Shown here piece by piece: positions 48,258 to 59,206 of a stretch of DNA of 64,000 nt. The DNA is from a virus. Both the position numbers and the translations under genes were made by a program. A model generated the notes under the pieces. The model made no database searches and was not told the DNA's origin. It saw only the letters and a list, made by a program, of their open reading frames with translations. The stretch spans positions 6,356-70,355 of IMG/VR virus record IMGVR_UViG_3300047560_000767. One strand, 5' to 3'. How positions within the stretch are numbered: the first letter of the stretch is position 1; every line of letters begins with the position of its first letter.

Positions 48258-49571
48258 TTAGACTTTACCGTTGTGTACGATAATTCCACCAGCAATTAAT
48301 GTATCTACTGGAGAAACGTTAAACTTATAAACTGTTCTAGCCTGATCAATAACCTCAATGCTGGTTACAGCAATTCCTGCTACTTCAACTTCATTAGCAT
48401 GGAATACTCTATCTCCAACCTTAAGATCTTGTATTTCTACAAATGATACTACGTCTCCAACTTGAGTAAGAACCTTTTCTCCCATTGTAAATCTCATGTC
48501 AAGGTTATCATTTAAAATAACGGTGCTTGACTTAGAAGATTCTTCAATAGCAATAACAGATGTCTTAACTCTTTGGTGCGAGTCTAAAGATTTATATGAT
48601 ATTTTTGCAAGTGGGTCAATTAGTTCATCAACCATTCCATCCCATGTAATTGACCAAACGTTGTCTCCTACACGAATATCACTTGCTGGCTTATAACCAA
48701 TCATACCATCTTCGCTAACTACCGCAACTGGTGTGTCTTGGTCAATGCAGTATCTCAAAGGTGTGAATGAGTATGCAGTTGGTGTGAACGAATATGGCGT
48801 AAAAGAGTATGGTGTAAAAGAGTACGGTACAAATGAGTAAGGCACAAATGAGTAAGGCACAAATGAGTACGGTACGAATGAGTACGGGGTAAATGAATAA
48901 GGAACAAAAGAATACGGCGTAAATGAATACGGTGTAAACGAAAATGGAGTAAATGAGAATGGGGTAAATGAGAACGTAGTGACGTTTGCTGAGTTTTGAG
49001 AAGGGTCACTATTTCCATTATCATTTGTTGCATAAACGTTATATGTCTGTGCTGTTCCTGCTTCTTGTCCAACAGTTACAGATGTAGATGTCGTATCTCC
49101 AGACTTTCCATCAGATGATGTCCAGTGATAGTTTGTAATTGGCTTGCCACCATTATTGGGAGCAGACCAAGTGACAGTATCTTGTGCTGTATTGGCAACA
49201 GTTGCTGCGGTTGGTGCAGATGGCTGTGCTGGTTTGGTTGTTGCAGTTACTGTACCAGATGTGGTACCTGCAGATGATCCAGAAGCATTTTTAGCAACTA
49301 CGGTTACTGTATACTGTCCACTAGATGCTAAACCAGTTAAAGTTGCTGATGTAGTGGTAACATTAACTGTTGTAGTAGCAGGGTTAGTTGTTACATCATA
49401 ACTTGTCGCTGCAGGAGAGTTTGCTGGCAATGTCCAAGAAACGGTAAAAGAACCATCATTGTATGCTCTGCCTACACCAACATCTGTTACAGTTAATCCC
49501 GTAACATCTAGTGGTGATAAAAAGTTATCCTGTGCGGATGACTTAATTCCTATTCGCTTGCTTGTAGCCAT
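48258..49571 (-). CDS. 2xFN3 + pentapeptide repeat + C-terminal Hint domain protein
   Basis: FN3 motifs (VSW..P, Y.V.A.N..G, WSAP.NGG.PIT.Y); 14 repeats; C...DIRVGD...VY...VHN. Confidence 0.85.
   Translation of the reverse strand: MATSKRIGIKSSAQDNFLSPLDVTGLTVTDVGVGRAYNDGSFTVSWTLPANSPAATSYDVTTNPATTTVNVTTTSATLTGLASSGQYTVTVVAKNASGSSAGTTSGTVTATTKPAQPSAPTAATVANTAQDTVTWSAPNNGGKPITNYHWTSSDGKSGDTTSTSVTVGQEAGTAQTYNVYATNDNGNSDPSQNSANVTTFSFTPFSFTPFSFTPYSFTPYSFVPYSFTPYSFVPYSFVPYSFVPYSFVPYSFTPYSFTPYSFTPTAYSFTPLRYCIDQDTPVAVVSEDGMIGYKPASDIRVGDNVWSITWDGMVDELIDPLAKISYKSLDSHQRVKTSVIAIEESSKSSTVILNDNLDMRFTMGEKVLTQVGDVVSFVEIQDLKVGDRVFHANEVEVAGIAVTSIEVIDQARTVYKFNVSPVDTLIAGGIIVHNGKV
48759..48974 (-). repeat. 14 x [FY]SF[TV]P pentapeptide (15-nt) coding repeat
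   Basis: Direct reading; synonymous codon variation between units. Confidence 0.95.
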
Positions 49572-49592
49572 TTATTTCTCCTTTAAGTTTTA

Positions 49593-51680
49593 TTATGCTG
49601 AGAGGTCGCCCATTACTACCCATGTGTCTGTTGCACGCTTGAATAGTGTTGCGGATGACCACTGTGTACGCAATTTCAATCCTGGTGTTCCATTAACTGT
49701 CACACCTGCTGCACCTGCGATTGTTACCTGACCTGTTGAAGTCTGAAGGATATCAATTGATGTTCCTACAGGGAATGCTGCTGTAGCATTTGTTGGAATT
49801 GTAACTGTTGTTGCTGATGCATTGCTTACTTCAACCAAAGAGTCTCTATCTGTAAGAACTACAGTATAAGATGCTGTTTGCTGGTTGATTGGTGTACGAG
49901 ATGGTACACCTTGCTTTGTTTGAGTTCCATCTGAGAATGCTACACCAGATGCTGTTGCAGTTACTAGGCCAGATGCTGTAATTGCTGCAGCATTAACTGT
50001 TCCAGTAAATGTAGGGTCTGCCTTTGGTGCCTTTGCATCAATCTGTGTCTGAATTGCTGAAGTTACACCATCAAGATATTGGAGTTCTGTATTTGATACA
50101 TTTCCAATAGTTGCTGATGTTGCTTCAAGTGCTCCCAGAACTAAAGTATCATAGTTAACGCTAGTTAAATCAATGACATTTGAGGTAGGTTCTGCACCAT
50201 TTGAAATAAGTTTCCACTTACCAGAATCTGATGCATCACGGAAAAGACCTGTGTGCTTATGTCCTACACCAGAACCTGGATAGTATGCTCCGTACACACC
50301 AATATCAAGTGCATCTGATGACGTATTTTGATCTGCTAGATAAATAAGTGAGTCATCAACAACAAGGTTATTTGCAGAAACTGTAGTTGTTGTTCCAGAT
50401 ACTGTAAGGTTTCCAGAAATTACCACGTCTGCAGCATTTAATGTGCCTGTAAATGTTGGTGCTGCTTTTGGAGCCTTAAGGTCAAGTGCTGTTTGTGTAG
50501 CACTTGAGATTGGCTTATTCGCATCTGAAGTATTGTCAACGTTTCCGAGGCCAACATCTGCCTTTACAAGGCCTGAAGGCGAAGTAATTGTCTTATTTGT
50601 AAGAGTCTGTGTTCCATCTGTTGTTACCAACTTAGATGTGTCTGTAATACCGTGAACAGATGTTGTATCTGCTTCGTGAGTAGAAACTGCAGAATTAACA
50701 TATGTCTTAGTTGCTAGGGCAGATGTATCGGCAATCCCGTGTACGTTTGTAGTATCTGCTTCGTGAGTAGAAACTGCAGAATCTGCATATGCCTTAGTAG
50801 CCAATGCTGATGTATCAGAGATACCGTGAACATTTGTAGTATCGTTTGCGTGTGCATCTAGTTCTGAGTGAATAACTAAGTCTGCTGTGTCAGCAATACC
50901 ATGAATGTTTGTAGTATCTGAACTGTGAGTACTTACTGCTGCATCTGCATAGTCTTCTGCACCAGTGATATCTGACTGATATGCAAGATTTGCTGTATCA
51001 GCAATACCGTGAACATTTGTAGTGTCTAATGAGTGTGTTCCAACAGCACCTGTTGCAAACTGTTCAGCATTTGATTGAGCAGATGAAACTTCTGACTTTA
51101 GAGCAAGTAGAGAAGTATCTGCAATGCCATGTACGTTTGTGCTGTCTGCTAAGTGTGTTGATAAAATTCCATCTGCGTATGTTGTTGCCTGACTTTTAGC
51201 ATTTTCAACATATGCTTCTGTTGCTAAGAGAGATGTGTCTGCGATACCGTGTACATTTGTAGTATCAGAATTGTGGGTGCTTACTGCACTGCCAATATTA
51301 GATGCAATTGTAGTTGTTATAAGTTCATCTGAATGTTGGTTTGCAAGACTAACGGCAAAGGCAACGTTTTCATCTAGAGTAGTTGAGAGATTTGCAAAGA
51401 ATTCTGGGTCATCATTGATTGCTGCTGCTAATTCGTTCATTGTGTTTAGCAGGTCTGGTGCACCATCAACAAGGTTAGAAATGGCTGCATTGATTGCATC
51501 TTGAACGCCTGCTGCAGATGCATCTAAGAAGTATGACAAATCTGCCCAATGGTTAGTTCCATCACCAATCTTAAATTTACCTGTATCGGATTCAAAACCG
51601 ATTTCTGCTGCTGCTAAAATTGGGTTAGCAGTTGTCCATTGTGTCGCAGTACCTCTGCGTTGTTGCATTCTTGTTGCCAT
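49593..51680 (-). CDS. tail fibre with Mtd-N-like N-terminus, His repeats and a GDL-type C-domain
   Basis: MATRMQQRRGT..W...NPIL...EIGFESDTGKFKIGDG; 7 HxxD[TS]Tx[VI]HGI repeats. Confidence 0.8.
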   Translation of the reverse strand: MATRMQQRRGTATQWTTANPILAAAEIGFESDTGKFKIGDGTNHWADLSYFLDASAAGVQDAINAAISNLVDGAPDLLNTMNELAAAINDDPEFFANLSTTLDENVAFAVSLANQHSDELITTTIASNIGSAVSTHNSDTTNVHGIADTSLLATEAYVENAKSQATTYADGILSTHLADSTNVHGIADTSLLALKSEVSSAQSNAEQFATGAVGTHSLDTTNVHGIADTANLAYQSDITGAEDYADAAVSTHSSDTTNIHGIADTADLVIHSELDAHANDTTNVHGISDTSALATKAYADSAVSTHEADTTNVHGIADTSALATKTYVNSAVSTHEADTTSVHGITDTSKLVTTDGTQTLTNKTITSPSGLVKADVGLGNVDNTSDANKPISSATQTALDLKAPKAAPTFTGTLNAADVVISGNLTVSGTTTTVSANNLVVDDSLIYLADQNTSSDALDIGVYGAYYPGSGVGHKHTGLFRDASDSGKWKLISNGAEPTSNVIDLTSVNYDTLVLGALEATSATIGNVSNTELQYLDGVTSAIQTQIDAKAPKADPTFTGTVNAAAITASGLVTATASGVAFSDGTQTKQGVPSRTPINQQTASYTVVLTDRDSLVEVSNASATTVTIPTNATAAFPVGTSIDILQTSTGQVTIAGAAGVTVNGTPGLKLRTQWSSATLFKRATDTWVVMGDLSA
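50630..51280 (-). repeat. 7 x HxxD[TS]T[NS][VI]HGIxDT coding repeat (approximate limits)
   Basis: Direct reading of the translation. Confidence 0.85.
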
Positions 51681-58587: not shown

Positions 58588-58594
58588 GCTACAC

Positions 58595-59206
58595 CTATGC
58601 CGTCAAATCACCAATTAAGATCCAAGAGTTTGTGTCTACCTTGAATAATGATGCACCAGAATATCTAGCAGCAATTTTCTTGTTACTATTCTTACTATTA
58701 ATGGTAACTCCAGAACCTTGTGCTAAAATAACATTACCGCTTCCAACTCGCACAATATCTAATCTCTGACCAACCTTAAATGGTGCAGAACTATTTGGCG
58801 GAACGGTAATTGTAATATCTGAAATAGAATTTGCAGTTAATGTTTTTCCTGCATCGGTTAAGGTAATAGTATAGTCAGAGGAAATTCCAGACAAAATCAT
58901 TGAATCTCCAAACCACATCCAAGTTCCATTCCAGTAATACTGTAACTGTCCTAGGCTTCTAACGAAACAGACAATTCCATTAGTTGGAGAAGAAATGACT
59001 AAGTCTCTAACAGTCTCATCTGCAAAATTATTAATACCACCTTGAGCATTTAGAACGGATTCAAAAGTTACTGTTGCACCAAAATTTTGCGATGCTGTCC
59101 AGTTATACTCTGCATTAGTATTAACGATGCCAGATATTGCATACCAAGTATCATCCTCGGCATTATACATATAGGCATTTCTACCATTTGTATTAATTGT
59201 TGACAT
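58595..59206 (-). CDS. short fibre protein with a GDL-type C-domain
   Basis: YT....D.....ITVP.N....F.VG...W.L.GDLTA, similar to the C-terminus of 49593..51680. Confidence 0.7.
   Translation of the reverse strand: MSTINTNGRNAYMYNAEDDTWYAISGIVNTNAEYNWTASQNFGATVTFESVLNAQGGINNFADETVRDLVISSPTNGIVCFVRSLGQLQYYWNGTWMWFGDSMILSGISSDYTITLTDAGKTLTANSISDITITVPPNSSAPFKVGQRLDIVRVGSGNVILAQGSGVTINSKNSNKKIAARYSGASLFKVDTNSWILIGDLTA

Follow-up and report, generated by a model that had tools for sequence, protein, structure and literature searches.

Hint domains are known as inteins, Hedgehog processing domains, bacterial intein-like (BIL) domains and pretoxin modules. Here we analyse a 64,000-nucleotide stretch of viral DNA (positions 6,356 to 70,355 of the 70,355-base IMG/VR virus record IMGVR_UViG_3300047560_000767; hereafter the window), in which two adhesins, P0001 and P0002, end in a C-terminal domain (C-domain) that is modelled as Hint. 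Each adhesin gene lies directly downstream of a fibre gene whose product ends in another shared domain, here called GDL.

Several described systems can be set beside this locus. A-type BIL domains (Amitai 2003; Dassa 2004) are summarised in PMC7765530, and Tetrahymena BIL2 is described in PMC8616854 as forming an isopeptide between a lysine epsilon-amino group and a C-terminus. In Klebsiella phage KP32, according to the account in PMC13352976, the branching domain of the first receptor-binding protein (RBP1) and a 29-amino-acid (aa) conserved peptide at the N-terminus of RBP2 form a docking pair, and RBP1 itself ends in an auto-cleavable chaperone. The S74 auto-cleavage domain is reported in PMC7824862 to be associated with low-complexity fibres. 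The present locus joins a docking principle that is already known to a new Hint subfamily, which occurs regularly in a setting new for Hint domains.

Two adhesins share a tether and a C-terminal domain

Checking of the open reading frames (ORFs) returned both adhesins at the coordinates given in an earlier note on this DNA (Table 1), and the different N-terminal domains described there were recovered as well. Pfam detected fn3 in two stretches of P0001 (52.4 bits, cut-off 25) and PASTA (PF03793) in P0002 (31.1 bits, cut-off 23.2), and twelve cysteines were counted in the insert of P0002. The C-terminal parts of the two proteins are 52% identical over 223 aa (E 8e-76). As the note had also recorded, the junction between repeats and C-domain is identical in both (16 residues, AYSFTPLRYCIDQDTP, AYSFTPLRY|CIDQDTP), and both C-domains, of about 160 aa, end in VHN plus three residues. 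DNA identity at the junction is only 71%, indicating that selection on the protein, not recent copying, holds these features; recent gene conversion was considered as the source of the identical junction and was rejected on the same figure. Different codons are used at 43 of 86 codon positions that encode the same residue in P0001 and P0002.

The earlier count of 14 [FY][ST]F[TV]P units stood for both window proteins (six plus eight in P0002) but did not carry over to relatives, in which the same regular expression finds 0 to 23 units. The repeats of P0002 consist, in DNA, of 15-nucleotide tandem units with 72-85% matches between units. Across the family the tether takes different forms by lineage: [FY]SFTP, PxFFAP, FGFSPFxV, FPSFPT, YFPPYFPF and sometimes plain Pro/Ala/Thr linkers. 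Because the repeat type differs by lineage, the hallmark is an extended aromatic/proline tether, not one particular pentapeptide. PF00805, the classical pentapeptide-repeat family with A(D/N)LXX repeats and the Rfr fold, was absent from the Pfam matches of both adhesins at E <= 1, a search in which HMMER filters may drop weak matches. Peptidase_S74 was likewise absent from the adhesin matches at E <= 1, the filters dropping most matches above E of about 0.1.

Each adhesin starts with a short peptide whose sequence depends on its type. The FN3-type peptide carries the motif K-x-G-x(2)-S-x(2)-[AS]-[NQ]-[DN]-F-L-x-P, which is found in relatives. The PASTA-type peptide reads hydrophobic-G-x-W-x(3)-K-G-M, and alignments show M1 and K12 to be invariant and G13 and M14 nearly so. 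These N-peptides are conserved within an adhesin type across distant lineages.

The C-terminal domain is modelled as a new Hint subfamily

The AlphaFold2 model of the C-domain of P0002, built from an alignment of 13 C-domains, reached a predicted local distance difference test score (pLDDT) of 86.7 and a predicted template modelling score (pTM) of 0.83. Foldseek searching of the PDB with this model gave 42 matches at E <= 1e-3, and among the matches listed all were inteins, BIL domains or Hedgehog Hog domains. The best match by template modelling (TM) score was Tetrahymena BIL2 (6y75; 0.69/0.79, root mean square deviation (rmsd) 2.9), TM values to PDB Hint structures ranging up to 0.69/0.81. 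Further matches included the RadA intein, the Ssp DnaB intein, Hedgehog domains 1at0 and 6tyy, and the Clostridium thermocellum BIL domain 2lwy (TM 0.57/0.70). A profile search of PDB sequences returned four hits, all mini-inteins (E 0.004-0.02), whose alignments pair both the terminal HN and the Thr of block B. Pfam Hint-type matches lie below threshold in 7 of the 13 C-domain members, and since no Pfam Hint-type model reaches its cut-off we regard the domain, on the strength of its modelled fold, as a new Hint subfamily. Pretoxin-HINT (PF07591) also stayed below its cut-off (15.6 bits against 27.7, E 0.02), and no toxin domain follows the Hint domain.

The catalytic set was counted in 48 unique Hint domains from related loci, 47 of which reach the N-end. 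Cys1 is present in 47/47 and the block B Ser/Thr in 48/48; the block F Asp is kept in 39 domains, the penultimate His in 40 and the terminal Asn in 44. Block A, CIDxDT, is nearly invariant among relatives. Such conservation suggests that the domain is catalytic. The position after the Asn (+1) takes 12 residue types across the 48 domains (Gly in P0001, Ser in P0002), and the tail beyond the Asn is 2-4 residues long; canonical splicing is excluded as the common function of the family. One clade (L045, L046, L049 and L053-L055) has lost the block F Asp, the His-Asn pair and the Lys at +2 in both paralogues and has kept Cys1, which we read as selection on the N-terminal thioester step. The Hint end in this clade is Y-[NG]-A-Y-P-[IV]-D or similar.

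Known family members are all from uncultured phages

A word-indexed search added 31 clusters at 90% identity, exclusively metagenomic. An exhaustive profile search of 1.84 billion representatives gave 516 proteins at E <= 1e-3, 142 at E <= 1e-10 and 36 at E <= 1e-30. The statistics that follow come from 181 family proteins including near relatives, so that counts are not independent events. The Hint domain ends at most 15 aa from the protein C-terminus in 170/177, and Cys stands at the expected first Hint position in 97/101. The 40 residues before this Cys contain at least 40% F+Y+W+P in 80/97 (median 0.50). Four proteins (P0073, P0074, P0084 and P0175) lack Cys at the expected position; in two of them a Ser in similar surroundings may be the nucleophile.

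The ESM Atlas and BFVD hold further viral proteins with a C-terminal Hint domain behind Laminin_G_3 (372 members in the ESM Atlas), DUF642 or FN3. A few UniProt entries from uncultured phages have been auto-named 'Hint domain containing protein', 'Fibronectin type III' or 'PASTA_pknB domain containing protein'; NCBIfam was of no help, and looking up the clusters yielded no names. With the low-complexity filter on, 50,697 GenBank phage records held no match to the region by megablast or to P0002 and P0032 by tblastn. In a set of cellular genomes (185,579 species, one representative each) the single hit was an 889-base contig of a metagenome-assembled genome (MAG), and the family therefore looks viral. 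The Hint-adhesin family is so far an uncultured-phage family only. A literature search within one library of papers found no account of phage receptor-binding proteins that regularly end in a C-terminal Hint; its queries returned only true inteins in terminases and ribonucleotide reductases (RNRs), or nothing.

Fibre and adhesin genes are paired and their products may dock

The two fibre genes upstream of the adhesins encode a common C-terminal domain, the last 92 residues being 38% identical (E 3e-18), in line with the shared end domain that the earlier note had seen. To count pairing, we ran one hidden Markov model (HMM) per domain over the ORFs in all six frames of the window, 56 viral loci and one MAG contig. 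A Hint ORF directly follows the GDL gene in 49/51 cases with at least 600 bases downstream (36/37 unique); the exceptions are a frame-broken adhesin (L013) and a PASTA adhesin that ends before any Hint domain (L031:641-1099). Conversely, a GDL gene directly precedes the Hint gene in 50/54 cases with at least 400 bases upstream (36/38 unique), the exceptions being two long proteins of 885 and 1125 aa (L018=L050 and L052=L056). As these upstream ORFs were also the source of the GDL HMM, the count is partly circular; an independent regular expression found that 41/48 upstream ORFs end in GDLxx. The pairing also follows type, with short GDL proteins beside PASTA-type adhesins and long GDL fibres beside FN3-type ones, and the two-module layout recurs on several contigs. 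The adhesin is split in two loci (L013:9342-10522 and L014:3-754), where the N-terminal ORF ends in ...KIHLFR and the Hint domain lies in another frame; as the same break occurs in both, a frameshift, a pseudogene or an assembly error could account for it.

Single-chain fusions lend independent support to a coupling of GDL and Hint. The metagenome proteins P0054 and P0091, together with their cluster members P0182 and P0183, carry GDL at residues 131-231 and a Hint domain at the C-terminus. The N-terminus of P0054 and P0091 resembles the window ORF at 59426-60403, and is followed by GDL, Cys-rich modules, aromatic repeats and the C-terminal Hint domain.

The conserved N-peptides and the type-specific platforms suggest that the adhesin docks on the GDL domain by its N-peptide. 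We predicted a complex of three copies of GDL residues 55-203 with residues 1-100 of adhesin 2, alongside three controls. The median interaction prediction score from aligned errors (ipSAE) was 0.47 (runs 0.41, 0.47 and 0.54), compared with 0.00 for the best of the three controls; at least 82% of contacts agreed between runs, and the partner pLDDT was at least 80. The mark set for this score is reached by 58/80 solved complexes and 2/110 mismatched pairs, a calibration that is rough here, where own alignments and several chain copies were used. Passing scores of 0.60 or under were obtained by 7 of the 80 solved complexes and by both passing mismatches.

The GDL domain resembles T4 gp9/gp10

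The AlphaFold2 model of the 203-aa short protein has a mean pLDDT of 73.9, with residues 110-203 in blocks of 89-97. VIA-align matched its residues 101-201 to the C-terminal domain of the Pa223 capsid spike (9ny6_C; Z 13.9, rmsd 1.9, 96 residues), the Klebsiella phage KP1 baseplate protein (9f4a_LS; Z 10.4), residues 78-179 of CBA120 TSP4 (7rej_B; Z 9.1), residues 66-165 of T4 gp9 (1qex; Z 8.4) and a T4 baseplate chain (5iv5_AC; Z 8.2). As modelled, the GDL domain has a T4 gp9/gp10-like fold, as in CBA120 TSP4, which is known to serve a second receptor-binding protein as docking platform. This assignment came from structure comparison, the GDL profile giving chance-level hits only (E 0.16 and above) against PDB sequences. 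For residues 55-109, VIA-align gave collagen XV/XVIII trimerisation domains at a Z of about 6, which may mean a common arrangement only.

PHROG matches of the 203-aa protein are to the C-termini of tail and virion proteins. The 695-aa fibre matches Pfam Mtd_N (E 5.7e-13), PHROG tail-fibre families and the GDL HMM (E 8e-42). It contains about eight copies of D-T-T-N-[VI]-H-G-I-[AST]-D-T, encoded in 87-nucleotide tandem repeats. A GDL domain also occurs in 262 GenBank phage records, 223 of them Gordonia phages, with the annotation 'minor tail protein'; in phage Nubi, gp36 is a stand-alone 118-aa GDL domain encoded by the last tail gene. The Gordonia annotation and the position of the Nubi gene favour a tail location.

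Platform follows module type, tether and Hint follow lineage

The two Hint domains within one genome are 40-71% identical, and same-type domains of distant lineages 24-49%. A maximum-likelihood Hint tree has three supported clades (100/99, 93/96 and 100/99), each mixing PASTA-type and FN3-type domains, with at least five label changes for FN3 and at least seven for PASTA; long branches were flagged, so that its details are unsure. The idea that PASTA-type and FN3-type Hint domains are two old orthologous groups was rejected, as supported clades mix both types. The repeat type is common to both paralogues of a genome, and GDL domains are type-specific, as N-peptides are. Judged from these alignments and the tree, N-peptide and GDL domain track module type, and tether and Hint domain track phage lineage. 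The job of the Hint domain thus seems independent of the platform.

A probable self-removing Hint domain and alternative readings

We lean, by a little over even chance, towards a branched receptor-binding module in which the adhesin docks by its N-peptide and the Hint domain forms a Cys1 thioester and removes itself. An uncultured siphovirus would then carry two copies of this module. In each, the primary fibre would end in an approximately 100-aa GDL beta-sandwich of the T4 gp9/gp10 and CBA120 TSP4 kind, on which the secondary adhesin from the gene immediately downstream would dock through its short, type-specific N-terminal peptide. The adhesin would present its binding unit (PASTA with a Cys-rich insert, or two FN3), then the extended aromatic/proline tether, then Hint. 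An N-S acyl shift at X|Cys1 would let Hint remove itself and leave the mature adhesin with the aromatic repeats at its C-terminus; the 3-residue tail could in addition be clipped by the His-Asn end. Until assembly, Hint may act as a cap or helper that keeps a sticky low-complexity tail masked or chaperoned and is then removed. Judging from residue conservation, autocleavage is the most likely activity of the domain.

Several observations weigh against this reading. Intein_splicing scores (19.1, 24.0 and at best 28.2 bits) fall short of the 35.8-bit cut-off. In most inteins the block B histidine matters for the acyl shift; here its position holds Glu in 28, Gln in 15 and His in 5 of the 48 unique domains, with Glu in both window copies. 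Lys occupies +2 after the Asn in 39/48 although +1 varies, and simple cleavage leaves this Lys unexplained. The pairing loci are largely one syntenic phage group, with an RNR in 19 loci (81-90% identity in 16) and o148 in 27; as neighbouring genes are conserved too, adjacency alone is weak evidence of coupling. The L031 adhesin, directly after a short GDL gene, has N-peptide, PASTA, repeats and a Cys-rich end without Hint, making Hint dispensable at least there. The predicted complex scores in the weak band of its calibration and so lends docking weak support. Known branched systems have the branching domain close to the RBP1 N-terminus, whereas here the platform is the extreme C-terminus. Finally, the closest structural match of GDL is a capsid spike (9ny6), and a match to the decoration-protein family Phage_cement_2 lies inside the fibre cluster (54943-55458, minus strand); together these make head fibres, not tail fibres, possible.

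The Cys1 thioester might instead be resolved by an amine to give a covalent isopeptide, an outcome that we consider unlikely, if still worth serious attention. The acceptor could be the Lys at +2, which would amount to a BIL2-like splice onto the tripeptide; it could be a virion protein, such as the fibre; or it could be a free host cell-wall amine near the PASTA/FN3 site. The structural closeness to BIL2, an HN-x-K end whose Lys is kept across 12 residue types at +1, and a flexible tether before the scissile bond, suited to reaching a nucleophile, all speak for such ligation, as does PASTA, by its Pfam name a peptidoglycan-associated domain family, with a role in binding. It is unlikely, in our view, that Hint is a built-in ATP-free ligase, with the adhesin C-terminus held as a thioester on the tether until an amine captures it, and a latent thioester would, from general chemistry, be hard to maintain on free virions. 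Ligation also has to accommodate the clade that lacks Lys+2 and His-Asn and keeps the rest of the module, and the clustering of Hint domains by phage lineage and not by GDL type, which speaks against a type-specific Hint-GDL reaction. An invariant GDL Lys had been considered as the sign of an acceptor and was rejected, because Gordonia phage Nubi gp36, from a phage without any Hint adhesin, carries it as well.

Alternatively, the fold may be inert, a distal binding or structural knob that ends the repeat tether and undergoes no processing. Replacement of the block B His by Glu or Gln in 43/48 domains, the loss of block F Asp and His-Asn in a sub-clade and the natural Hint-less variant would all suit this. 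On the other side, a 2019 report by Friedel, listed among the references of PMC8616854, states in its title that the extein context is able to make up for the block B histidine. An inert scaffold would have no reason to keep the catalytic set seen here, from Cys1 and CIDxDT to the mostly kept His-Asn, nor would the junction be expected to stay identical between paralogues whose DNA has diverged there, and we hold this reading to be improbable. Still further down the scale, and in our opinion scarcely credible, is insertion of selfish mini-inteins, or remnants of them, near the 3' ends of two fibre genes. Sequence and fold are indeed closest to mini-inteins, and block A CIDxDT and block G VVHN are intein-like. 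However, the Asn is followed by only 2-4 residues, +1 shows no conserved nucleophile, no allele was seen that lacks the intein and runs on into a C-extein, and the 160 aa hold no endonuclease insert; the C-terminal position is kept across very different N-terminal parts, and Hint co-varies with repeat tether and lineage. Self-removal after docking stays the reading we favour. The earlier note had expected a Hint fold and a gene pairing kept in relatives, and both were borne out by the model and the pairing counts above. Its 'modular fibre-tip adhesins' agree with the GDL fold of branching and docking domains, the type-specific conserved N-peptides and the fusions, with weak support from the complex prediction. 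Overall, that interpretation is right in outline and partly supported.

If Hint cleaves, it would be a second, chemically different self-removing C-terminal module besides that of S74 fibres; as a naturally occurring mini-Hint whose active site (TxxE, HN-x-K) is unusual, it could also interest protein engineers. If it ligates, phages would have a new viral way to build or anchor adhesins; with a host peptidoglycan amine as acceptor, adsorption would become a covalent, sortase-like reaction.

Genome setting and neighbouring genes

The source record has an estimated completeness of 65% (CheckV) and siphovirus-type gene content: a 2549-aa tape measure protein, portal, protease and major capsid genes, and a family-A-like DNA polymerase. 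Both fibre-adhesin pairs lie within a minus-strand cluster of fibre-like genes upstream of the head genes (Table 1).

Table 1 Features of the two fibre-adhesin pairs in the window (positions of the window; Hint and GDL assignments from models and profiles)
Feature	Position	Strand	Description	Source
Adhesin 1 (P0001)	48258-49571	minus	437 aa; N-peptide, 2 x FN3, 14 repeats, Hint	ORF, Pfam, regular expression
P0001 N-peptide	49497-49571	minus	QDNFLxP motif	
P0001 2 x FN3	48978-49496	minus		Pfam
P0001 repeats	48759-48974; residues 200-271	minus	14 [FY][ST]F[TV]P units	regular expression
Hint domain 1	48270-48749; Cys275 to Asn434	minus	160 aa; block B RFTMGE; E 2.1e-81	family profile
Hint 1 tail	48261-48269	minus	GKV	
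Long primary fibre	49593-51680	minus	695 aa; Mtd_N start, HG[IA]xDT repeats, GDL domain at 49596-49883	
Adhesin 2 (P0002)	57154-58587	minus	477 aa; N-peptide, PASTA, 6 repeats, 12-Cys insert, 8 repeats, Hint	
P0002 N-terminal peptide	58543-58587	minus	MFRWLGFWAQSKGMT; conserved in PASTA-type relatives; proposed docking peptide	
P0002 PASTA domain	58360-58542; residues 16-76	minus	PF03793	Pfam
P0002 repeat block A	58255-58350; residues 80-111	minus	6 units	regular expression
P0002 insert	57790-58254	minus	155 aa with 12 Cys	
P0002 repeat block B	57655-57789; residues 267-311	minus	8 units	regular expression
Hint domain 2	57166-57645; Cys315 to Asn474	minus	160 aa; block B RFTAEE	
Hint 2 tail	57157-57165	minus	SKS	
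Short primary fibre or adaptor protein	58595-59206	minus	203 aa; residues 55-106 resemble a trimerisation unit	
GDL domain of short protein	58598-58906; residues 101-203	minus	gp9/gp10-like beta-sandwich; proposed docking platform	

Near the PASTA-type module, a lysozyme-like SLT_3 protein with a signal-peptide-like N-terminus (56066-56686, plus strand) is encoded opposite to all its neighbours and is kept beside this module type in 26 loci. A small Cys-rich DUF6171 protein (56687-56926, minus strand), kept in 18 loci, lies just downstream of the 12-Cys adhesin 2 and could be connected with its disulfide-rich insert. Directly downstream of the FN3-type adhesin is a 246-aa protein (47500-48240, minus strand) that matches phrog_7084 and, weakly, DUF6065. 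Of the 8 loci with this protein, 5 encode it immediately after the FN3-type adhesin (about 70% identity) and 3 at another place (31-33%). A WhiB search of the phage's own record gave a sub-threshold match only (15.4 bits, cut-off 23.6).

Comparison with known systems

Measured against the Hint superfamily, the domain has the beta fold, as modelled, and Cys1, and its block B departs from TxxH with Thr/Ser kept. Of the features of a canonical class 1 intein, the terminal His-Asn is present, and a +1 nucleophile with a real C-extein and a score at the Intein_splicing cut-off are absent. A-type BIL domains and Tetrahymena BIL2 are alike in Hint fold, Cys1, C-terminal His-Asn and the lack of a required +1 nucleophile. 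BIL domains, too, sit within variable, non-conserved surface-type proteins and not in conserved enzymes, and auto-cleavage at one or both ends would be expected. The present domains differ from them in their extreme C-terminal position with a 2-4 residue tail, block B TxxE/Q, the conserved Lys at +2, the aromatic/proline repeat that always precedes and their place in phage virion-type proteins; the likeness seen here is one of structure, to 2lwy and BIL2.

The Hedgehog Hog domain, represented among the structural matches by 1at0 and 6tyy, is likewise a C-terminal Hint whose Cys1 thioester releases an N-terminal functional part. Unlike Hog, the phage domains lack a sterol-recognition region, only GKV or SKS following the Asn, end in His-Asn and belong to phages, not animals. 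Pretoxin-HINT (PF07591) resembles them as a Hint that releases a neighbouring module, with the sub-threshold Pfam match and ESM Atlas neighbours labelled PT-HINT; however, it releases a toxin domain that follows Hint, and here only three residues follow.

The S74 domain would be alike, under self-removal of Hint, as a C-terminal module of phage receptor-binding proteins that removes itself after its job. Fold and chemistry are unrelated, a Ser-Lys dyad in S74 and the Cys1 thioester here, and S74 drives trimer folding, which is not indicated for the PASTA/FN3 adhesins. The branched systems (CBA120 TSP4/TSP2, KP32 gp37/gp38, and T4 gp10 with gp11/gp12) share with this locus a gp10-like beta-sandwich on the primary RBP, a secondary RBP gene just downstream and a conserved N-terminal peptide. 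Their secondary RBP is a trimeric depolymerase spike, whereas here it would be a small-domain adhesin with a disordered tether and Hint. A GDL platform joined by a type-specific peptide would extend the branched-RBP principle to uncultured siphoviruses.

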